The notes under the pieces were generated by a model that searched no databases, had not been told where the DNA came from, and saw only the letters and a list, made by a program, of their open reading frames with translations. A stretch of 64,000 nt of DNA. It comes from Octopus sinensis. Its lineage: Eukaryota. Shown piece by piece: positions 4,644 to 62,886 of the stretch. Where the stretch lies: NCBI RefSeq assembly GCF_006345805.1, contig NC_043015.1:3844001-3908000 (forward strand). Reading direction: 5' to 3'. The translations under genes were made by a program, and so were the position numbers. Each line of letters begins with the position of its first letter. The first letter of the stretch is position 1.

Positions 4644-6960
4644 GCACCACACGAAAGTCGGTATTTACATACAAACCGAACAACAACCAATGCACACCAA
4701 ATAAAAGACACCAGGACCTCATACTTACACAAGTCAATCTAACAAAAGAAAACTACGGTACAACTGGAACACAAACCTCCATAATAGAAAACTCGCTTTG
4801 TTGAATATGATAAAATATTCCAAGAAAGCAGATATCTACGAGGGATGAATGATCTCAACAACAATTATTCTCCCACGGAAATTCCAAATCAAAACAATAT
4901 CTAATGAACCCAACAGACGGAGCACTATTAGGGAAAGGTTAGCACAATTCCATCTAAAATCAGAGATCGAACTACCAAACTTTAGAGCCTCCACTAATGA
5001 AGAAAAATATAAAAACATCGACGAGGAGATTCACAGGGACATAAGCAAACAAACCGAGGCACAACTCTTCGAAAACACCATAAATCTTTGGAAAAAACTC
5101 TGCGAAAACGAATTATGAAATTCTCTTCTACGCTAGGAAATAATCAATGGTTTCTTCCAAAGATATGAATCAGTGAAGATAATTCTATTCTACAGAAAAT
5201 GATAAATTATAAACAACAAACAGAAATTGAACAACGCACAAATCTCCCCCAATTTTAACCACTTTTCAACCACAACACTCCTCATTATCTGTCATACACC
5301 ATAAACAGAAATCACCTACTACCTCCATTTGTGAATCACCCAAAACTAAACAAGCTGACAGCCAACTCATTTATGAAATAGATTACATCAAATCTAAAGA
5401 ACACCCATACACCAACATCATCCCAATATCAGGCATAACCATCTCATGGCAATGCAAAACAACACTAGGAAAGCAAGCAAACCACATACCTGGCGCTACT
5501 ACCCCATGACCCAAAATTTCCGGTCTCCACCGAACACAAGAACAGCACAAAATAACACTTGATCAAGAAACACCCCGCATACAAATAATTCCAAATAAAA
5601 GTATACCTCACACAGAAATGTTACACACATCACTAACCAAAACTACCATAGGTACCGGCAAACACATAACCTGAAGCAAGAACACCATTCCCCCGGACCA
5701 ATCCCATACAACCTCACAGACATCTCATGCAAACGAACCTGCAACCCACATTTTTAGCTCCAGATCAGAGACACCAGAATACAGGTTGGAACCTGGTGAT
5801 CAGGTTAAACCGAAGATAATTAACCTCTCAACTAAACCTCTTCCAATCACAAAAGTAAACATCTTCTCAAAAGACAAAACAGGCAATCGTTTGAAATTAA
5901 AAAGGCTATTGAACAGCGTCAACCCAAACATACAGTTCTCAATGGAGTGCAACCAAAAGGAGCGCCCATTCTTAGATATACTAATTGAAAAAACCTAAAA
6001 TTCGAAACGGACATATCTTATAAATCTACAGACGCCAAACATTATCTACAATTTAATTCATGCCACCCAAAACACAAAATAAACATCCCCTTCAACCTTG
6101 CAAGAAGTATATTCAAAATAGTGTCAGAAAAATACCAGAGACTTTAGACTGCAATGGCTCACAGTTAAACTCATAGAAGATGGAATCAGACTTGCAATGC
6201 AAATCGACATAGAAAACTTTAGAAAACACAGCTTCCCCGAAAATATTGATGTACATATCCACATACAACCCAATAAACAAAGAAGCCTTTATCATCATAA
6301 ACCGAAATTTACCAATGCTACATAATGACCCACATGAAATCATTAAAATCCACAAACAACTGAAATCACTAAAAATGACAATCACAAGGGCACAATTACT
6401 TTCTTAAATAACGGATGGAAAAGGGAAACAACCTTCTAGATAGCGCTAATCTTCTTGATGGATCAGAATAGATTTTCAAATAGGGACAATTCAAAATCAA
6501 ATCTGACTTTACTTCTGCTTCAGAAAACCTGATTAATGTTATAAGATGCTCGAGTCCCACCAAAACTAAATGGTATCCACGGGGTTATCACTCAGACGCA
6601 GATGCACTCTGCACCGACAGCAGATTGCATTCCTAAGTTACGGAATGATACACTTTAGTGAAATTATTGAGAATGCGCAAAGATAAGGCTAATACAATTT
6701 GTAATCTTTCTATTCTATCAATGTGCCATTGGAACACCGACACAAGTTAGATTAAATAAGGAAACCAACTTCATTGGAAAATATAAGCCAAAACCTAACG
6801 ATTTCTAACATTTTAAAATAAAGAAACTTACCCCATTGAAAAATATAACGCAAAGCTTAACCCCTTGTAACACTCTATTCTTTCTAAATCAAATCATGTT
6901 AAATTAATAAAAACTAGTCATTCCCAACAATTTTGATTATCTCCGCCATACCGAAAAATA
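4644..6960 (+). mobile_element. Penelope-like retroelement, decayed, RT core deleted
   Basis: Frameshifted peptides KIINLSTKPL; LLNSVNPNIQFSME..PFLDILI; YKSTDAKHYLQFNSCHPKH..NIPFNLAR (RT C-terminus/thumb); then IKSDFTSASENLI..SLRRRCTLHRQQI..KETNFIGKYKP (GIY-YIG region) ending ~6808, followed by a non-coding 3' tail. Confidence 0.85.
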
Positions 6961-10994: not shown

Positions 10995-11043
<49 letters not shown>

Positions 11044-11185
11044 CAATTAAGATTGAAGTCAATTCTAATGAATTCACTTGAATATGGTACTTAACTTAGA
11101 TGCACCAGAAAACTATATGGTGTTAACCAATACAGTAGTGTGGGGTGATTATAAACGAGAATAGAAGCAACAAGAATGGATTGGT

Positions 11186-11276
11186 TTTTAGTACAATTGT
11201 TTCATACAAAGACAGGCTTTATTAAAAGTTGCAAATATTGCAGCAGATAAAAGTGTCCCGTACTCATCAGCTAAAA
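11186..11276 (-). ncRNA. Type I hammerhead ribozyme motif (inverted copy)
   Basis: Reverse complement of 11697-11787. Confidence 0.75.
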
Positions 11277-11696
11277 CACATATGAGTTCTCCAAACATGT
11301 TAGTGGGTGAGGCTACACTCATGAAGTATTGGAGATAATTTCATTAAAAGCAGATTCAGGTTGTAAACAGACTTCCAAAGATCTTTAATGATGATGCACA
11401 GTCTTATCACAGGTCTTAAAAAAGCTTATTAGCTTCACAAAAAAGTTTAATCCATCCATCGTTTGTGAGTATGAAATACCTCCTCATATCTCTGGAAATT
11501 TACACCTACACTATGGATGGATTAAACTTCTTTGTGAAGCTAATAAGCTTTTTTAAAACCTGTGATGAAGACTGTGCATCATCATTAAAGAACTTTGGAA
11601 GTCTATTTACAACCTGAATCTGCTTTTAATGAAATTATCTCCAATACTTCATGAGTGTAGCCTCACCCACTAAGATGTTTGGAGAACTCATATGTG

Positions 11697-11787
11697 TTTT
11701 AGCTGATGAGTACGGGACACTTTTATCTGCTGCAATATTTGCAACTTTTAATAAAGCCTGTCTTTGTATGAAACAATTGTACTAAAA
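11697..11787 (+). ncRNA. Type I hammerhead ribozyme motif
   Basis: Stem I TTTTAG/CTAAAA; CTGATGA 11703-11709; stem II GTACGGGACA..TGTCTTTGTAT; GAAA 11770-11773; palindromic stem III CAATTG; predicted GUA cleavage after 11781. Confidence 0.75.
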
Positions 11788-12570
11788 ACCAATCCATTCT
11801 TGTTGCTTCTTTTCTCGTATATATATATATATATATATATATACAAGTATGTATCTTTTGGCATGATAACACTGTTGTTCTGGAAAATCGACCAAAATTA
11901 TGCGTATATGGTCGAAAGCCGGAAATATATCGGAGCATAGATGCCGATAAGGAATAATTAAGTGAACGGTCAACTAAAGGCAGCATGTGTAACATATCTA
12001 ATGCTTGATAATTTCGCACTAAACACAATTAAAGCTAAGCTTAAATTGACTCTGTACATACCATGAAGAACAAATGCAATGCAAGAATATAAAAAATAAA
12101 TGTTTTCACTGAACGTATCTCATTGTCTCCTTTGACTGTAAGTACAAATCATGAAGTCTAACAGTACAGTAGAGTAGAATGGATGTTTAAAATGTTTGAA
12201 TGTGAAGACAAACAAACGCATTCACACACACACGCACACACAAAAATGCACACATATACACGATTATAAGCAGACACACACACTCATACGCACATACACA
12301 GTCACGTACACACGCGCGCATGCGCAAACAAACACATGTATGTATATACTAGTTTCAGAGCTGTACTCCATGCGGACCATCCACCGGGCTTTTGCCTAGG
12401 GCTAATTAGTCCTGCGGCCCAGAACAAGATTATACGATGATAATAAAGCATTTATTGGTACTGTGTCTATAAGTTATTACGTTAAATTCAGTTTAAAGGA
12501 AATAAATTGTTAGCTCCAGATATCTGGAGTTCATTTAATATTCGAATAGAAGATATGTATACACACACAT

Positions 12571-14657: not shown

Positions 14658-15581
14658 GGAGCATTCGGATCGGCTTTCGAACATGATCTAGCATCGAAAA
14701 TTTCAAATTGACACAAAAGTGACGTCTATCTATTATAGGAGAACAAACATAAATTCTTGTTCGATTGCTGGCTGCTAAAGATCGTAAACTTATTGATTGG
14801 TCTAGAACACATTAAATGAATTATGTATTTCATTTGCCGATAATCGATGGCCTCACATTAATTAATACTCTACGCTCAGCTCCGTTCTAAATAATAGCCG
14901 ATAGTATAGATTATCGATAACGTTTTTTTTTCTTCTTTGTGTGTTTTATTAATCTACTTCCGACGATTTTATGCAGTCAATGTGATAAATTTTTTGCTGT
15001 TTTCTATGTCAGTTTATGACGTCAGTGCATATAGGTATAGAAATTGCAAAACACATACGTAGATGAAAAACAGATAAATATTAAAAAAAAAGACGACTAG
15101 AAACACTCCGAAGAACACAAACTCGCAAACACGCACCTGCATGTATGAATGTATTTTAATATAATCACATATATATATATGATTGTCTCCCCTTCGTAAA
15201 TGTATATAAGGACACATGAAAAAAATGTATCAAAGCCATCAGGAGGCGTTCGATGCTTCCTAGGGCTATACAGCGTTGGTGTACCCCCTACTGTCACGTT
15301 CTTGTTAGATTGACAGTATACAACCATTCTATCGCCCCACCACCGTACATGTCTCTACGAGAGATTTAGAAATTCAATATTTCTTATTTTGATAATCAGT
15401 GAATAGACTTCATTGAATTATAGATATATACAATTGCGAAGTCGAGACAAAGATCACCGCCCCCCCCTTTTTTTTTTTTGGTTATTGTGGTGTGTTTGTT
15501 TCGAGTGCGTCATTGTGAAGAGATTGTGAGTTCGAGTTCGTTGGAGGACGTTGAAAAGTTTTTTGTTGGAGATTTTTGAAA

Positions 15582-16388
15582 ATGCAAGAGCAGACTTATG
15601 CGAGAGCGGCAGGCAGAGGCCTAGTTGCCAGTGAACTGGAAATGGAAGAAGTGGTGGTCGAACAGAAAACTCTAGAGAAGTATTTCGACAGTTTGAAGAG
15701 GGAGGGTGACTGCGTGAGAGTCACACCCGTCGAGGAGGAAGAAAGCAACGTGGAGAAGCGTATGATAACGTACAGGACATGGTGTGTGGCGTCGAAAAAA
15801 GTTGAAGTAGCAGAAACGGAAGAAGTAGAAAAGTGTCTGAAGGAAATTGAGTGTGAACCCACATTTTTCAAGAGGAAGGAAATATGCCACAGTGGTGGTA
15901 TATTTTAAAACAGAAAATGAAGCAAAAAAGAATGCAACAAGAATTTTGAAAACGGATAAGTGGACTTTACTACCAAGTTACTGCGGAAGGAGGGCAGTGA
16001 GGATGAGAATTAGCAGAATTTCGCCCGAATTTAATATGGAGAGGTTGTTGGCGGCAGTGGTTTTCAACTGCAAGGATAGTGTGGAGGTGTTGAAGGTGGA
16101 GAAGTCAACAGAGGTTAAGTGGTGGGGATATACGGTGCAGGTTCTGGCACACATAACCGTGCGAGACCTGTACAACATCCCGGAGGAGTTGGTCTACCCT
16201 GATGAGACACGGCTTAGAGTCGTGGTAGAAGGAAGACCCCCAGTCTGTGCTATAATTGTAAATCAAGGGGCCACATGAAGGATGTGTGCCCGCTGGAAAA
16301 AACGAAAGCACCGGAGGCTGTAATAGAGGAGTGTAAAGATGCGTGTGTGGAGGAGGGAGAAGTGCAGGAGGAAACAAAAAAAACAGCT
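15582..16388 (+). pseudogene. LINE ORF1 (L1/Tx1-like nucleic-acid-binding protein with CCHC zinc knuckle), two frameshifts, truncated by assembly gap
   Basis: ORFs 15576-15908, 15847-16278 and 16275- join into MQEQTYARAA..KYATVVVYFKTENEAK..LRVVVEGRPPV-CYNCKSRGHMKDVC; CX2CX4HX4C at 16248-16289. Confidence 0.75.
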
Positions 16389-16961: not shown

Positions 16962-17210
16962 AGGCGGCGAGCTGGCTGAAGGCGGCGAGCTGGCTGAAAC
17001 GTTAATACGCCAGGCGAAATACGTAGCCGTATTTCGTCTGCCGTTACGTTCTGAGTTCAAATTCCGCCGAGGTCGACTTTGCCTTTCATCCTTTCTGCGT
17101 CGATAAATAAAGTACCAGTTTCACACTGGGCTCGATGTAATCTACTTAATTCCTTTGTCTGTCCTTGTTTGTCCCTCTATGTTTAGCCCCTTGTGGGTAG
17201 TAAAGAAATA
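16962..17210 (+). mobile_element. SINE family A, full length, duplicated 18-nt head, 17-bp TSD
   Basis: AGGCGGCGAGCTGGCTGA x2; B-box-like GAGTTCAAATTCC; TSD TATATTT(G/A)AATAAGAGT at 16944-16960 and 17211-17227. Confidence 0.9.
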
Positions 17211-17223
17211 TATATTTAAATAA

Positions 17224-24947: not shown

Positions 24948-26196
24948 TTTTTTTACTTTTGCATCCGTAAATTTAGAAGACAATTTTGCCTTTGTGAGAA
25001 TATTTTTAAGTGATTTAGGCTGTTTGTAGCTTTTAATGATTTGGTGTATGTTTCGAATTCCTTTAATTTGGGGTTTTTATGAAGTATTGGTAAATTCTGG
25101 GTGATGATGGTGAAAGCTTCTTTGTTTCTGGGTTGTATGTAGATATGTAAGGTAGTATTTTCGGGAAGGTGTGTTGTTGTGTTGAACTTTTCTTAAAGTT
25201 TCTATGTTGATTTCTGTTGCACGTCTGATCCCATCCTCTATGAGTTGAGTTGGGTAATGTTTTATATCTTTATAACTCGGAAAGAAAATACGTATAACAT
25301 ACATATATTGAAAATGTAACATTCGTTTATACAATGAATATTTGTGAATATCTTTTTAAGTATGTTTCCATATGTTCGTTCACATAATGCTTTAGACAAA
25401 GGCAAAATTGTCTTCTAAAATTACGGATGCAAAAGTAAAAAAAATGTGGTAGATCGAACTGTGCAACATGTCCTAACCTATTGGAAGGATCAGAATTCTT
25501 CTTTAAAGAGGGACAGAAATTCAAGATCAAATCTAACTTTACTTGTGCCTCTGAAAACATATTTATGTCATTAAATGCTCGGGCTGCCACCAAGACTACG
25601 TGTATCCACGGCACTATCACTCAGACGTAGATGCACACTGCATCGACACATATTGCATTCCAGATATAGAAAATGATCCTTTTAGTGAACACATTGAGAA
25701 ATGCGCAAAGCAACATACAACCACAATTTTTAATCTCCATTTTACCAATGTGCTTTCGGATCATCATCACAAATTAGACTAAATAAGGAACATTCTTCAT
25801 TGAAAGTACAAACCCAGACTCAACTATCCGAACTCAATAATACAGACAAATTCACACTAAAGGAAAAAAAAATTTAAGCGATTATCTCCCTTAAACCGGA
25901 AGAAATCACTCACTACTTTCCCTTATTTAGAACTCTCCGTAGCAAAAATACAAGGATTACGTTATTAAAAATAAACATTAAATCACAAGAAATTTGAAGA
26001 GCTAACTGCGAAACCGGTATTTCTTTAAAAATTATAAAATTCTGTCATTTTAAGGAGGGAAAAAAATTTTTCCAATATTCTCCAGACGTTTTGACGCAAA
26101 TATATATATTTTTAAACATTTAAGCCTTCTGTCGTTTTTTCACTCTTTACTATTTTCTTATATATTCACCCACGTGCTTTACCAAAACAAACTTTC

Positions 26197-27627: not shown

Positions 27628-29346
27628 ATATATATGCATATGGTTACAGATATATATATATAATATATATATATACACATATATGCCTATGTGTTTATAT
27701 ATATTATTGATGTTATATTCAAATATTTATACATATGTACATATGTTTTCTGTTACGTATGTATGTATAATTACCACTGGATATTTAACCCCATCGATTA
27801 TGCATCACTGCGATTACCCATTCACATTACCTTAATTACGAAACTGCACATTCATAAAGCAATCCGGATTCATGTTTAAACTGTCAAGGGCTGTTAATGG
27901 TTAGCGAACACAAACGCAGTCTCATAAACGTACCGCCGCACATACAGTGGCAGACACACACGTAGAGATGTACACAGGAACAAACTAACGCAAATCCATC
28001 TATTTATGGAGAACATAAGGGAGATATTGCCGGAGATTTAGAGAGGATATCTCGAAAGTTTGGGTTGGTTTACTGTACGGAATATCATAAAGTAAAATGT
28101 ATTATGCTTAATCAATATTTATATATAACTACATATAGGTGTAGGTGTGAAATTTTAAGCTGTATACAAACTTACAAGTCTTTCTCAAATACATATGCGG
28201 AATCTCATATACCGATATACGTATTTACCTAGCTGGATGCATATATACATATATAACAACAAATACGCACATATAGAGCTATAATTAAGTTGAGGTATAA
28301 CAGTATCTATATATATACGTTAGATAAATTACATATATTTTTTATCGCTAATGCCATTACAAAATACCAAGTGAAACAAATTTGATAGTCAATTTAATTT
28401 AATTACTGTTTATATCCTCTCCTCCTAATTCTCTGTTTTATTCGATTTCCAAGTCTCGCCATTTAATATCTCCAACATAGAATTTCTGTCTTTTTCGGAA
28501 TATATATTTATGTACTGATTAGTATAGTCTGTTGTAACAAATATACACTTCAGAAAACACTATTCAGACATACGCGCGCACACAAAGACGTACACACACA
28601 CACACACACACACAGAGACACTTAGGCACATTGATATAAATACACTCACCCGCACACGAACATATATAAGTATCTGCATATCTGCATGCATATGAATTCA
28701 TTTACGAGTGTATGAATATGTTAAAAATTTACTGTCTTTTCATTTATTCCCCTCCTAATATAAGTTTTCTCACCGTTCTTGTAATTATACTTTCCAACCT
28801 CTGCCAGATTCGTCACTGAATCTTAATCAAACTATTCTATTTCATCTCTTGACATTTTATACTTTTGTTTTTGCTAGTTGCTATAATGCTTATTTTGTCA
28901 AAATACATACATGTACCACTGTTTATATTACATTCAAAGCTCATAAACTTTAATGATTTTTACTTTTTACCACGATAGAACTAAGTACGTTAATGTTACT
29001 CGTCATATAATGGATGATTTTGAAAGAATACTTTTAACACCATTAGTAATTTCAAGAAAAATAGCAGATAAACATTAATTATAGTATAACTTTTAAGAAA
29101 TTAATTTATGTTTACGGTAGATTATGAAACGTATACTCAATTAATATCGTATACAAACTTGAAATAAAATTACATAAATCTATTTTGGAACAGTACAGAA
29201 AATGAAAACAAAAGTTTCACACATATTCAATTTTACGAAGTGGCATGTCAGATATACATACTCTCTCTCACTCTCCCTCCATCTGTCTCCATCTCTCTTT
29301 CTCCCCACTCTACATACATACTTGCCTACATATATGTGTGTGAAGA

Positions 29347-29578
29347 AGGCGGCGAGCTGGCAGAATCGTTAGCACGTCGGGTGAAATGCTTAGCGTTATT
29401 TCGTCTGCCGCTACGTTCTGAGTTCAAATTCCGCCGAGGTGGACTTTGCCTTTCATCCTTTCGGGGTCGATAAATAAAGTACCAGTTTCGCACTGGGGTC
29501 GTCGTAATCGACTTAATCCCTTTGTCTGTCCTTATTTGTCCCCTCTATGTTTAGCCCCTTGTGGTCAATAAAGAAATA
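29347..29578 (+). mobile_element. SINE family A, full length
   Basis: Near-identical to 16980-17210; approximate TSD ATATATGTGTG(TG)AAG. Confidence 0.9.
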
Positions 29579-29592
29579 TATATATGTGTGAA

Positions 29593-34565: not shown

Positions 34566-34602
<37 letters not shown>

Positions 34603-34735
34603 ATATATATAATATCACAATCAAGGAACGGCCATAATAGGCCATTCACCCACTAGAAATAACAGCAAAAGCTTTAACCGCAAAATAACATCAATTCCGT
34701 AAACCAGGAGAAATTTAAAAAACATTTACCCTGTA

Positions 34736-34840
34736 ATTTCTTATACGATGCACCGTTTCGTCTACTGTTAATGGTAAACTAACCTGATTAAATTAAATCA
34801 AGCAATCTACGATAGGCCCTTAGATTCATCAGTAAGAAAT
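34736..34840 (-). ncRNA. Type I hammerhead ribozyme motif
   Basis: Minus strand: ATTTCTTA-CTGATGA-ATCTA..TAGAC-GAAA-CGGTGCATCG-TA-TAAGAAAT. Confidence 0.75.
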
Positions 34841-35536
34841 AGCCAAGTCGGAACAGATATTTTTCACGAGGCATTCCCGTCCCTGCCTCGGCAATATCTG
34901 ACCTAAAATTTTCAAATCATCGCACTCGCGCCAAATTTATCGGCAGCAAATAAATATAAGCCGCCGATTCCTTACGGAATTAACCAGAAAATTCATAATT
35001 AATCAATATAGGGTAGCAAAAAATTTTGTAGAATTTTTTTGCCACCAGCGGCCTAGTGGGAAAAAATTAAATAGTCATAGACCATTTTTAAGTTCAACAT
35101 CACAATCAAGGAACGGCCATAATAGGCCATTCACAAAACGGTGCATCGTATAAGAAATTACAGGGTAAATGTTTTTTTAATTTTCTCTGGTTTACGGAAT
35201 TGATGTTATTTTGCGGTTAAAGCTTTTGGCTGTTATTTCTATGTGGGTGAAGGCCTATTATGGCCGTTCCTTGATTGTGATGTTGAACTTAAAAATGGTC
35301 TATGACTATTTAATTTTTTCCCACTAGGCCGCTGGTGGCAAAAAAATCTACAAATTTTTTTGCTACCCTATATGATTAATTATGAATTTTCTGGTTAATC
35401 CGTAATGGAATCGGCGGCTTATATTTATTGCTGCCGATAAATTTGGCGCGAGTGCGATGATTTGAAAATTTTAGGTCAGATATTGCCGAGGCAGGGACGG
35501 GAATGCCTCGTGAAAAATCTCTGTTCCGACTTGGCT

Positions 35537-35643
35537 ATTTCTTACTGATGAACCTAAGGGCCTATCGTAGATTGGCTTGATTTAATTTAATCAGGTTAGT
35601 TTACCATTAAACAGTAGACGAAACGGTGCATCGTATAAGAAAT
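35537..35643 (+). ncRNA. Type I hammerhead ribozyme motif
   Basis: 8-bp stem I ATTTCTTA/TAAGAAAT; CTGATGA 35545-35551; GAAA 35620-35623; near-palindromic stem III CGGTGCATCG; predicted GUA cleavage after 35635. Confidence 0.72.
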
Positions 35644-35884
35644 TACAGGGTAAATGTTTTTTTAATTTCTCCTGGTTTACGGAATTGATGTTATTTTGCG
35701 GTTAAAGCTTTTGCTGTTATTTCTAGTTGGTGAATGGCCTATATGGCCGTTCCTTGATTGTGATGTTGAACTTAAAAATGGTCTATGACTATTTAATTTT
35801 TTCCCATTAGGCCGCTGGTGGCAAAAAAATCTACAAAAGTTTTTTTGCTACCCTATATTGATTAATTATATATATATATATATA

Positions 35885-35926
<42 letters not shown>

Positions 35927-37736
35927 TGTGTGTGTGTTGTGTGTGTTGTTGTATGTATGAAATATATATATCTATATGTATAATACAGTGGCGGGAAATA
36001 TATATTCGCACATGTCAAAATTCTTTATTTATTTAACTTCTAATGAAGATAAATGGGATGTACCAATACTGTATTTGCATACACATGCATAAACTAAGAA
36101 TATGCAAAAGAAACTAATAAATTATTGTAACTTATATGTATGCTTGCATTTATGTGTACATTTCCTGAAATAAACCTAACGTAGAAATGTGAGCACGTGG
36201 AACTAGAATCCAAAATCGAAAGAATGATATTATTTTGTAAATTTACGTTGATAAATTGGAGAACTTTTAATCAGAGAACTAACAAACAATTAATTTTGGA
36301 ACAGGAATTGTATAAATTTACAAGAAGCCGTGCAGTGCAGTTTAATAATTTAATTATCATATATAACCCGTAATGCTTAACAACCTTAAACTTCTTTCTG
36401 TTTTTCCTTTACAAACGCTGTTTTTCAAAGTAGGAAGAACAATTTGCAGAAAGCAAATATGGAAGGCAGGAAAGTGAAGTAAATTTAAATCAGTATTCTG
36501 TATTTAATAGAAAATTTTCCTGATAATTCTTCTCTCCAATAGTATATATATTTCCATTCTATGCAACAATTACTTATATACTTGGGAACTCTTTAAGAGT
36601 ATTTTATTCTCAAGAAATAGTTCTGATCTGTGAAAGGTGGGAATAATAATTTCCATAGATTTGTCAGCTACAATGAAAATAAAATGGGAGCTTAAGAAAA
36701 TACTTTTTTACTCACAAATCTATACTGTATGCATGTAAACGGTTTTGTTTATGAGCTCAACTTGTGAAGAAAGTCCCCAGCAACTGCGGAGTCATGCATA
36801 TACATATCAGTACGCATATACACTGATGAGATGCGAACAATATTTAATTTGTAACATATAATATTCTAACATTCATGTACATATTTATTCAAAATATCTA
36901 TGTCAATCATGCTTTAGATATATGCAGGGCAACTAGCATCCAGTTTGATCTCCCCTTGCGTGAACAGAATATTTAGTTCTCCCATAGCTTCGATTATTAT
37001 TCTGCTGAACGCAAGCATATTTCATATTAACATAGTCATTGTATGATGAGTGTTTATTTAGCTTGATATATTTTACTCCGAGTGATCTACAATATAAGGG
37101 ATTAAAATTTGTGAGACCTAACAGCCTGCTGTTGGTGATATCCCAGCAGTAGAGTCTAGCAAAGTGATTTCAACGCCCTAGGTGGAGTAGTTAGTTAGAT
37201 AGTTAGTTACGATTTTTGCAGGATAACAATTCACATGAAGTAAACTATTGGAAAGCCGTTTTGCAATTTTGTGCGTGGTTGAGTGATGTAATACAAGAAA
37301 CAATAAATATATAATCACTAATATTATTCATAAGAAAAATATTCTGCATGTAAATGCAAAACTTTAGTTAAACAGATACTACAAGAGATAACATTTCATA
37401 ATATCCTCTCGTAGTTCCGATGCGTAATCTCCGATATATTATCCGACGTTACAAATAAAGTTGTTTCTATGTTCAAATTCTATCTAGCACGAAAGAAGGT
37501 GGTTTATTTTCCGATGTTTATACAGAATTGGCATGTCATAAGAATCATACTTTTTCCAAGTATCTCGCTGATTCTTTCTCTATCTCTACCTAGCTTTTTA
37601 ACTTTCCATCGCCCTCTCTCGTTTCATGAATGTGTTCCTTTATCACTTATTGTCGGATCTCATGTAAAGGAAGATTTAAATAAATGCGGTATGATAATAC
37701 GTATCAGGCTTAAAGACAAAATCTTCAACACCACCT

Positions 37737-37786
<50 letters not shown>

Positions 37787-38501
37787 TATGAACCATAAAT
37801 TCATACACTTGCACACACACATTTGTGTGACAATATGGGAGAGAGAGAGGATATTATCTTCGAATACTTGCATGTTAGAATGCTATTTCTTATGTTTCAG
37901 CATGTTTATACGTTCTTGGCTGGGTATGCGCGTTGACTGAGTATTAAGCTTATTTACTCTTCACTATAAATCCCCGCGTGTAACTTCAAGCCACTTTGAA
38001 ACACTTTAAAACACCTACTTTCATACATGCGTCAATAAATGTCCAGCTGCAATATAGTTGCCTGATAAATTATCAGATTTTTAAGTACTAACTTGCGATG
38101 GATTAGTTATATTTTCAACGGCAGCCTTATGAAATAATCCTTTCAGTATGAATATATAACTCAAATAATTGCTATAATTGCACCTCTTCAATTTTAGGTA
38201 AGGCTTATGAACGAATATAACTGAAATGTACCCTGATGATACAGCATGAAATTCGAAGTAATATAATCAAGTACATCGCTTGACTGCAGAAAATATCTGA
38301 GAAGATATGACGCAATTTACCTGAAGGTATAATTTGTCGGAATTCGTCTATCCTCATTATTTAAAGAATAGAAAACTTCAACATGAAAAAAATTAATTAA
38401 CTTATTGGCATTAAGTGGTTTATCAATTAACTGGAAATAAGAAATATTCCCTAATTTACACTGTTTCGTGTTAAATGTGAGAAACACCTGTTCGTACTGT
38501 A

Positions 38502-39105
38502 AGGCGGCAAGCTGGCAAAAACGTTAGCACGCTGGGCGAAATGCTTAGTGGTGTTTCGTCTGCCGTTGCGTTCTGTGTTCAAATTCCGCCGAGGTCGACT
38601 TTGCCTTTCATCCATTTGGGGTCGATAAATTAAGTACCAGTTACGCACTGGTGTCGGTATAATCGACTTAATCCGTCTGTCTGTCCTTGTTTGTCCTCTC
38701 TGTGTTTAGCCCCTTGTGGTAGGAAATGAATAGAAATAGGAACCTCGTCTGCCACTACGTTCTGGGTTCAAATTCCGCGAGGTCAACTTTGCCTTTCATC
38801 CTTTCGGGGTCGATTAAATGAGTACCAGTTACACACTAGGGTCGATATAATCGACTTAATCCGTTTATCTGTCCTTGTTTGTCCTCTCCGTGTTTAGTCC
38901 CTTGTGTGTAGTAAAGAAATAGGTATTTCGTCGGCGCTACGTTCTAAGGTTAAATCCAGCCGAGGTCGACTTTACCTTTCATCCTTTCGGGGTCGATTAA
39001 GTAAGTACCAGTTACGCACTGGGTTCGATATAATCGACTTAATCCGTTTGTCCGTCCTTGTTTGGCCCATTTGTGGGTAGCCCCTTGTGGGCAGTAAAGA
39101 GATAA
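38502..39105 (+). mobile_element. SINE family A with one head and three tandem ~190-bp body units
   Basis: GAGGTC(G/A)ACTTT..AGTACCAGTTAC..CCCTTGTG repeated three times; imperfect TSD GTTCGT(A/T)CTGT(A/C)A at 38490-38502 / 39106-39118. Confidence 0.9.
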
Positions 39106-39859
39106 GTTCGTTCTGTCATGGCTGAAATTTATCCGGAGAAAATATATCACAGTGGGAATATAATTGATCAATATCCTTTCTATTTTGATTAACCAGGTTC
39201 TGAAGGATACAACTGGAAGAAATGGGTCAATCGATTTGAGCTCCTTCTCTATCGCTACAAAAGATCTTTGAAAGAAATCAGAATAACGAAAATGCGATAC
39301 ACCTGGCAATTTAGCATACAAATCAAATTTATTCAACCTGGAACCTTATAAACTCCTTCCCTCCATGATTCAATACAATTGGTAATTGATATTCTTCTTT
39401 ATTCCTATGCGCATTAAATAAAAGAGAATGAGGAATCCATCGAGAAAAATATATGTAATAAATTAGTTTAAACACATAAACCGAGAGACAACGTTTAGTT
39501 AATCCTTGTAAGAGTGCACCATAATAATGCGTGTCAAAACGCGGACTCCCATTTACGTGAGTATGTGTTTATGTATGCAATATATGTGTATTCAAGTATG
39601 TACCGATTATATAGCTGGAATTTTACTTTGAAGAAAGTGATTTCCCATTGGAGTAAATATGAAGAGCCTACTTTCAAAACCGGTATAAAAGCGAATTTGC
39701 TCGATTTCATGACGATCATTAAAACACAATCTGCATGCTGCTGGCTTCACGCAGGTGGGATTTTTAGTCAAACTGGGATAGATGACATATAGACCGTAGG
39801 CGAATCTTAGTCTTCCTATCAAAATCAGATTTAATCAAGTTATTGTTTTTAAAAAAATC

Positions 39860-57300: not shown

Positions 57301-58715
57301 TTCCTATATAACGTTTTCTCTGATTCAATGCTACGTAGGAATGGTTTCCCTGTAATTTGACCATTGTCAAATCTATTTTGTGCTTCTGAAATTTTGATAT
57401 GTATATATGCAGCAAACTATGCAAAAAGGAAAATTAATAGTTTACTAGTTTCAATATTTCAATATAGCCTACACCGTTGTCACCGTTTGTATATTTGATT
57501 TTATTCCATGCGATGCTGAAACACATATAATATATTTAAAAATATAGTCATAACGTTAAAGTTGAATGTGTTAAGTTGCGTGAAGGCTGTGACCTGATAT
57601 TTTTATAACTGATTTCAACTTTGATATTGGTAGTAAAATAAAATAAGACGGATATTGAAGAAATATTTATAACTATGAAATGATTTTTGCATAATCGATA
57701 TGCAATTCGTTCTCACATTTGTTTTCTGTCTGACTCTGGATGATTTGAAAAGATAGCTGAATATATTTGTGGAAAGATATATACAACAACTACGCAATGT
57801 CTAGACAAATTTAATCAGCCTTAGATCAATTTATCTTTGTTTACTAATTTCATTTTACGGCATGCTTAGATTGAAATATAAGCTTGGCGGCAGCATGGTT
57901 TCAATTGTATGGAAACGAAAACCTTTCAAACCCGAATTGAAATGAAAATAACTATAAGTCTGTTGACTTGTTCATATCTCGAAATAGAAAAGAAAGACAA
58001 ATATTTCTAGTGCAAGTAAGCTAATAGCAATATCATCTTATTTGTCAGTATATAATGAAATTTGTCTGTAAAAGTATGATGAGGCTCTCAAAACATACAT
58101 TGTAAAATATGTTACAAGATAAATATTTTGCTAAATTTAAAGCAGCAAAATCGATCGCAAATGAAATGTATTTAGCGTTAATCAAAACATATCAACTCCT
58201 TCCTTTGCCCAGGCGCACAACAACACACGCACGCGCACGCGCACGATATATGATATAAACACATTTAAATGGAGATGATTTGGATCTGATATGAGTATAT
58301 TCTGCGTTCAAACAGTAAATAGTTATTAATATTCTATGATTAAGTGCAAGAAATTCTAAACCATAAGCAAAACTGCTGCTATATTAGAAATAATAAAGTG
58401 CATTAGGATAGGTATATTACGTTCAGTTATATAGCTTTCTTCTATTAGCAAGCAAATCTCCTATTTTCTTCTGCACGTCCACCAACAATTTACCACTAGA
58501 TAACCTCTGGCTTGTTTTCTCTCAGTACTGAGTTCATATCAATCACCCGCCCTCGCCTTATTTACTATCAGTGGTAAAATAGCCGGAACTTTCGACAAGC
58601 ACAAGATCACAGATTTGAAACTGGTTCTCATTCCTGCATAGCTTAAGGCAATCGATCTACATCTACTCAAGGTAACTTAAAATCTACGGTTTTAAGTCTA
58701 TTTATTGTAAATATA

Positions 58716-58893
58716 TATTTGTTTACTATCCACAAGGGGCTAAACACAAAGGGGACAAACAAAGACAGACAAACGGATTAAGTCGATTACATCAACCCCA
58801 GTGCGTAACTGGTACTTAATTTATCGGCCCCCGAAAGGATGAAAGACAAAGTCGACCTCCGCGGAATTTGAACCCCGAACGTTACGGCAGACG
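58716..58893 (-). mobile_element. SINE family A body, 5'-truncated
   Basis: Reverse complement of the family A body unit. Confidence 0.88.
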
Positions 58894-59000
58894 AGCTTCT
58901 ACTACATCCCTCACAAACATCTCTTTCTCATCTTAGTAGATGTTAATTTGCGAGATTGTACCTATAACATACATATAATTTGGTACAACTCATACCAAAG

Positions 59001-62159: not shown

Positions 62160-62886
62160 CTTTTCTACTCTAGGCACAAGGCCTGAAATTTTGTGGGAGG
62201 TGACCAGTTGATTGCCTCGACCACGGTACGCAACTGGCACTTAATTTACTAGTTCAGAAAGGATGAAAGTCAAAGTCGATATCGGTGTAATTTGAACTCA
62301 GGACGTAACGACAAAAGAAATACTTATTTCTTTACTATCTACAAGAGGCTAAACACAGAGAGGACAAACAAGGACAGACAAACGTATTAAGTCGATTACA
62401 TCGAACCGAGTGCGTAATTGGTACTAATTTAATCGAGTCCGAATGGATGAAAGGCAAAGTCGATCTCGGCGGAATTTGATCTCACAACGTAACGGCAGAC
62501 GAAATACCTATTTTTTACTACTCACAAGGGACTAAACACAGAGGGGACAAACAAAGAGAGACAAATGGATGAAGTCGATCACATCGACCCCAGTGCGTAA
62601 CTGGTACTTATTTAATCGACTCCGAATGGATGAAAGGCAAAGTCGACCTCGGCGGAATTTGAACTCAGGAACTAATAACCTTTCTAACAAGACCTGAACT
62701 TTTAAGGGAGGGGGCTAGCCGATTTCATCTACCGTCAATTCTCAGCTGTTATTTATTTTACCGACGCCGAAACAATAAAAGGCGGGCGTCAACTTCGGAG
62801 GTTTCTCAAATAGGAATGTAGTGACGGGCAAAATGCCGCAGAGCTTTTTGCCCGGCGTGCTAAAGATTCTGACAACTCACCGCCTT
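62160..62886 (-). mobile_element. SINE family A cluster: three tandem bodies (62160-62670) plus an older headed copy (62690-62886)
   Basis: Repeated GGATGAAAGGCAAAGTCGA.CTCGGCGGAATTTGA; head AAGGCGGTGAGTTGTCAGAATC at the right end. Confidence 0.88.

Follow-up and report, generated by a model that had tools for sequence, protein, structure and literature searches.

Structure of the insertion

The locus at 34614–35869 of the 64-kb window, the whole stretch of octopus DNA analysed here, is an inverted repeat set between two (TA)n target microsatellites, one on the left (34566–34613) and one on the right (35867–35927). A repeat search of the window gave the underlying unit a direct-repeat period of 483–485 nt. 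By repeat comparison the insertion divides into a left arm of 521 nt (~1.07 units; 34614–35134), whose ribozyme-sense strand is the minus strand, and a right arm of ~735 nt (1.5 units; 35135–35869) on the plus strand. The inverted arms are 91–100% matching and meet head to head at 35133–35135, where they overlap by 2 nt with one mismatch; this junction is taken from the assembly. Near-identical 485-bp units in partial tandem and inverted arrangement within (TA)n were what the initial annotation had described. The fold-back locus is 90% paired, and no further copies of the unit occur in the window.

Both arms pass into (TA)n at their 3′ ends. The left arm does so 130 nt past its predicted ribozyme cut, and the right arm, by way of a short AT-rich overlap, 231–234 nt past the second predicted cut, leaving a gap of ~100 nt between the two 3′ ends. 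The predicted cut sites are read through in both arms. At its truncated 5′ end, the right arm carries the 3′ half of a hammerhead (stem III, the GUA site and the 3′ strand of stem I) at 35136–35158 on the plus strand. Partial tandem, inverted 5′-truncated copy, microsatellite target and alternative 3′ ends are thus all present, as in Penelope-type insertions.

The element had been called ORF-less, and no stop-free frame of at least 100 aa overlaps it. The longest frames of the doubled unit, 42 aa in sense and 79 aa in antisense, hold no coding trace, and the RT and GIY-YIG ORF of an autonomous Penelope-like element is missing from the insertion. With 485 nt, a GC content of 0.37 and no ORF, the unit has the short, non-coding, low-GC (<50%) character of non-LTR retrozymes, without features of LTR retroelements. 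No tRNA genes were found in the 64-kb window.

Hammerhead motifs in both arms

A descriptor search of the window located one complete type I hammerhead motif on each strand, at 35537–35643 (plus; predicted cut after 35635) and at 34736–34840 (minus; predicted cut after 34744). The search returned 2 matches in the real sequence against a mean of 0.0 over 100 shuffles of the window. Both motifs contain an 8-bp stem I, CUGAUGA, GAAA and a GUA site, with the conserved core and three helices in type I order. On the plus strand, stem I continues beyond an internal loop for 4 bp more (35530–35533 with 35646–35649). Stem III (35623–35634, plus) is self-complementary; its 12-bp self-duplex reaches −17.5 kcal/mol, and as a hairpin it is negligible. 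These elements had all been read correctly from the sequence at the outset, as had the single complete motif per strand, the half site and the A-C at position 10.1–11.1, which both window copies share. With one complete motif per strand, monomer excision from the locus is impossible.

The domain II that had been flagged as unusually long (~68 nt) measures 68 nt on the plus strand and 66 nt on the minus strand, and could be resolved into parts. On the plus strand (35552–35619) it consists of a 5-bp helix II (35552–35556 with 35615–35619), assigned from the fold and read variants, a 7×7 internal loop and a distal hairpin (35564–35582 with 35589–35607) of 19 bp given the family's majority alleles. 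A domain II of 60–68 nt is uncommon. It is accepted that long insertions in hammerheads may fold into hairpins (Eckert, 2023), and long insertions in helix I are known from Clec2.

Rfam hammerhead models, which the initial annotation had proposed as a check, matched neither motif. No hammerhead was present in the best 150 of 151 matches, nor in the 7 of 7 of a second search, and the matches obtained were of microRNA type only, on repeats. The long domain II is probably the reason why Rfam misses both motifs. Metagenome and viral contigs were also searched with a 20-nt stem III pattern, with 0 matches.

The repeat family in public sequence runs

Part of the element is present in 20 of the 24 listed runs, which come from 11 studies and bear 4 organism labels; half of its words occur in none. 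One unit (35330–35812) was compared with the contigs of 4 of the 24 runs at 80% likeness, and matching contigs numbered 9,642 (run X1), 1,044, 27 and 54 (run X8). Identities in X1 were at least 99% for 2,220 contigs, 95–99% for 3,607, 90–95% for 3,326 and <90% for 489. The contig count and the spread of identities indicate a large family of mixed age; summed contig depth was not taken as copy number. The word 'young' in the initial annotation does not fit the 3,815 of 9,642 contigs in X1 that are <95% identical, and the family is not uniformly young.

The joint between the last and the first base of the unit was found in 3 of the 4 runs, where only one contig (X13), with 103 nt on its short side, clears the short-side caution; the head-to-tail joint sits at an arbitrary phase of the unit. 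Together with the 1.07 and 1.5 units in the window, this closing joint establishes head-to-tail repetition. All 29 bins were covered in 3 runs, and the share of contigs continuing into unlike sequence was 0, 0, 0 and 0.06, so that the unit behaves as a closed loop. Among the pieces listed, to which 10,824 others add, none spans the whole unit. Unit and motif were present in independent runs, and no attachment to an ORF was seen in independent DNA.

None of the listed runs with the element is recorded as RNA. Run X8, which we guess to be RNA and which is one run of contigs only, without matched DNA, differed from the others: 15 of its 54 contigs were <90% identical to the unit, compared with 5–7% elsewhere. 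By eye, nearly all differences from the unit in four of its loose-end strings are T>C (~8, 4 and 3) or A>G (2). Such changes resemble A-to-I hyper-editing of both strands, in which the strand antisense to the ribozyme predominates; hyper-editing of this type is described for repeats (Porath, 2017). The X8 signal suggests read-through transcription in a double-stranded context, as a fold-back like this locus would give, and not retrozyme processing.

Read variants and predicted folds

An alignment of the two arms over 520 columns shows 6 substitutions and 8 columns with indels. The left-arm allele is present in read variants for 9 of these 14 differences, so much of the inter-arm divergence probably stems from assembly errors in the right arm, which also contains many homopolymer indels without read support. 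Both arms carry C at 35566, a position with G in 99.7–100% of read depth; this suggests a single template for the two.

The read variants listed are 40 of 56 rows, covering 38 positions. Position 11.1 is U in 52% (X1), 90% (X7), 82% (X13) and 16% (X8) of depth; the commonest closing pair in the DNA runs is A-U, and the A-C of the window is a frequent allele. G10.1–C11.1 is absent among the variant rows listed. Majority alleles at 35553, 35566 and 35619 complete the 5-bp helix II and the 19-bp hairpin (pair probabilities 0.95 and 0.99). Pairing is kept in 11 of the 14 listed rows at paired positions (in 2 of these only if linked to a change in the partner) and broken in 3, two of them common (35568, 52%, and 35619 A, 14% of X1 depth), for a helix model that was fitted after the variants were seen and with unphased alleles. 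The left copy, when folded, suggested a different arrangement in which an insertion separates A9 from a stem closed by G-C (35599–35604 with 35614–35619); this was rejected, being broken by common alleles at 35615, 35619 and 35599. Insertions of this kind are not known (Eckert, 2023), which likewise counts against that stem.

Among the 40 listed rows, core changes occur only at N7 (35549) and H17 (35635), the two tolerant positions, and none falls in the 11 invariant core bases or in stem III. As to whether the hammerhead core is better conserved than its flanks, 0 of 11 invariant positions vary among these rows, a result that is not significant by itself (P=0.40; P=0.17 with stem III added). 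For conservation of core plus stem III, P=0.022 was obtained in an interval picked afterwards; for variation at both tolerant sites, P is about 0.006–0.025. The pattern of listed core variants is ribozyme-like, but suggestive only.

Folding placed the active monomer 2.9–7.7 kcal/mol above a locked fold; in a lone ribozyme, pairing between core and stem III is predicted to cause the lock. The lowest-energy structure of two copies is a double hammerhead both for left-arm-like and for majority alleles, with U at 35553, where left-like denotes the right copy carrying this single U. For the right-arm copy as assembled, the double hammerhead is not the two-copy minimum. The ribozyme is accordingly modelled as cleaving only as a pair, held together by the 12-bp palindrome. 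The fold of the whole unit is stable on both strands (z −4.6 sense, −5.9 antisense) and its stability is not strand-specific; since the antisense strand scores equally well, stability of the circular fold was dropped as evidence.

Two smaller hairpins were observed elsewhere in the unit. At 35334–35367, just upstream of the phase at which the right arm ends, lies a further 14-bp hairpin in which a variant at 35364 turns a G-U into a G-C pair. A 7-bp hairpin at 35487–35510 has a 10-nt loop that contains 7 of the 38 listed variable positions.

A second hammerhead element and Penelope-like fragments

A second inverted pair in (TA)n occupies both strands at 11040–11818. Its arms are 97% identical, no tandem period was seen, and its 3′ ends lie ~115 nt apart. 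Descriptor search identified complete type I hammerhead motifs at 11697–11787 (plus) and 11186–11276 (minus), in which domain II is rod-like and 60 nt long and stem III is palindromic. In folding, the active form lies 7 kcal/mol above the minimum, and the two-copy minimum is not a double hammerhead. This element and the 485-nt unit have no sequence in common (best match 9 nt, E 2.9). The recurrence of a long domain II in an unrelated element indicates a recurring design, not an accident.

Two decayed, frameshifted stretches at 5840–6830 and 24950–25860, the latter copy partly inverted, contain what we take to be Penelope-like RT-end, CxxC linker and GIY-YIG-type motifs. Pfam returned 0 families for 6 of their frames, and scores in an Atlas comparison were all <0.9. 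Both are unrelated to the 485-nt unit. No autonomous partner with the same 3′ region was found in the 64-kb window, only these decayed and unrelated Penelope-like fragments.

Relation to known retroelements

Retrozymes are an already described class, and the concept of a Penelope-borne retrozyme has been published (Cervera and de la Pena, 2020; Li et al., 2026). Like animal non-LTR retrozymes (Cervera and de la Pena, 2020, PMC7229834; Li, Clavereau and Pollet, 2026, 10.64898/2026.07.22.740005), the octopus unit is ORF-less, has a GC content <50%, is a few hundred nt long and holds a single type I hammerhead. The head-to-tail continuity, the high copy number, a palindromic helix III and a proposed Penelope-like partner are further points of likeness. 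It differs from them in a domain II of 66–68 nt, where they have a 4-bp helix II and a short loop, in the absence of G10.1–C11.1, in the head-to-head inversion within (TA)n and in having one complete motif per strand. Its length is above the 150–450 bp of Cervera and de la Pena (2020) and within the 51–972 bp of Li et al. (2026). The latter ask for two complete motifs; because the locus has one per strand, it is filed here as retrozyme-like, and not as a proven active retrozyme.

The insertion anatomy closely resembles that of Penelope-like elements, whose hallmarks are partial tandems, an inverted 5′-truncated copy, a (TA)n bias and a 30–40-bp tail (Craig, 2021, PMC8557442). Endonuclease-bearing Penelope-like insertions (PMC8557442; Frangieh, 2024, PMC11167929) share with our locus the partial tandem, the inverted 5′-truncated copy at the 5′ end, a microsatellite target without discernible target-site duplication, and two 3′ ends downstream of the hammerhead with cut sites read through. 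They differ in that our unit lacks an RT/GIY-YIG ORF and has a 3′ offset of ~100 nt instead of 30–40, and its 3′ junctions, unlike theirs, overlap the target by 2 nt and by longer AT-rich stretches. The hammerheads of Penelope-like pseudo-LTRs are also of type I, with a palindromic helix III, an enlarged helix II and a dimer model (Cervera and de la Pena, 2014, PMC4209133). Theirs have a helix II of 6–8 bp, a short helix I and a conserved G10.1–C11.1, whereas the unit has a helix I of 8+4 bp, a 12-bp palindrome and an extra 19-bp hairpin in domain II. Chlamys elements such as MRC1 (Craig, 2021) are likewise non-coding Penelope-like passengers with pseudo-LTRs and head-to-tail copies, but they are green algal and mostly without canonical hammerheads.

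A domain II of 60–68 nt in such repeats, or a cephalopod retrozyme, was not found reported in the literature searched, including Bonar (2026); the supplements of Cervera and de la Pena (2020) and Li et al. (2026) may show such variants. The core spacer in Craig (2021) was limited to 17 nt, and 'half core' cases were noted there at 35–50 nt.

Proposed origin and alternative explanations

We consider it likely that the very abundant, ORF-less 485-nt type I hammerhead repeat is a non-autonomous, Penelope-dependent retrozyme-like parasite that was copied into (TA)n and is predicted to cleave only when paired. Transcription of a head-to-tail array would give an RNA of more than unit length, and a borrowed Penelope-type endonuclease and RT would nick both strands of a TA run. 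The two nicks may then have primed reverse transcription from separate internal positions downstream of the ribozyme, 130 and ~232 nt beyond its cut, and joining of the two cDNAs at their truncated ends would produce the head-to-head inversion. AT-rich cleavage, extension of both strands and two internal RT start sites have been described for a Penelope-like system (Frangieh, 2024, PMC11167929). As the arms read through the predicted cut sites, the template would be an uncleaved multimer or a re-ligated circle, which fit equally well. Two copies would form an active double hammerhead through the 12-bp palindrome. A mobilisation of this kind was proposed in the initial annotation; insertion anatomy, head-to-tail closure, the lack of ORF attachment and the folding speak for it, and the partner element it calls for was not found in the window. 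Also counted against it is the ~100-nt gap between the 3′ ends, which exceeds the usual 30–40-bp tail.

The arms could instead be 5′-truncated ends, or solo pseudo-LTRs, of an autonomous Penelope-like element, with the 485-nt period as its pseudo-LTR. We think this unlikely. Truncated autonomous elements have precisely this layout (Craig, 2021), pseudo-LTRs of such elements do bear type I hammerheads (Cervera and de la Pena, 2014), and a low-copy parent would be lost in the rounding of the run-on share, with 116 loose ends beyond those listed. However, both arms are longer than one unit and wrap around in the same way, the unit is without coding trace, independent DNA closes it head to tail with an unlike run-on share of 0 in three runs, and the single long loose end among those listed, from X8, is the unit again in an edited-looking form. 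The near-absence of run-on and the head-to-tail closure therefore favour a non-autonomous unit over the cut-off end of an ORF-bearing element. Somewhat less probable still is a family that is now satellite-like and amplified at the DNA level, its hammerhead a vestige without cleavage. Cleavage was seen in only 1 of 9 predicted Xenopus retrozyme dimers (Li et al., 2026), in vitro insertion proceeds with hammerhead cleavage dispensable (Frangieh, 2024), non-canonical 10.1–11.1 alleles are common, and the monomer is predicted to be inactive. A vestige fits poorly with core changes confined, among the listed rows, to the two tolerant positions, and DNA-level amplification with the inverted, short and dispersed insertion seen here, whose ends are of the retrotransposition type; moreover, an axolotl retrozyme whose helix II has a basal mismatch still cleaves (Cervera and de la Pena, 2020).

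It appears very improbable that mis-assembly or chimeric reads of a high-copy repeat created the inverted arrangement. In favour of such an artefact, the junction and flanks are those of the assembly, and the homopolymer indels of the right arm are unsupported by reads. Against this, the two arms stop at separate points and run into (TA)n stretches of their own whose flanks are unrelated, the unrelated family at 11040–11818 shows the same layout, which is the published Penelope signature (Craig, 2021), and unit and motif recur in independent runs.

On the preferred reading, a Penelope-dependent repeat, the known picture of what retrozymes are is unchanged. The link between retrozymes and Penelope-like elements has so far consisted of co-occurrence, shared ribozymes and sequence similarity (Li et al., 2026; Cervera and de la Pena, 2020); the present locus, an ORF-less hammerhead repeat inserted with the Penelope signature, adds a mechanistic footprint of it. 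The presence of a long domain II in two unrelated families within 64 kb, missed by Rfam, suggests that ribozyme counts in such genomes are too low. A broader conjecture, which we hold only tentatively and expect rather to fail than to hold, is that long-armed hammerheads (domain II of 60–68 nt), invisible to Rfam and to short-spacer searches, are widespread in the Penelope-dependent repeats of this lineage. Monomers and circles would then be self-locked, with only tandem pairs cleaving, 485-nt circular RNAs would be abundant, and some 'half core' Penelope-like elements (35–50-nt spacing; Craig, 2021) would have the same design.

Other features of the window

The DNA of the window is AT-rich and of animal type. 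A broken ORF with a zinc-knuckle-like motif at 15555–16380 adjoins a run of N; it is probably the first ORF of a LINE, and no homologue was found among 476 candidates, which were longer proteins. An abundant SINE-like repeat, partly in tandem with a period of ~185 nt, occurs at 16978–17215, 29345–29583, 38501–39107, 58702–58899 and 62179–62670, and presumably resembles octopus SINEs.
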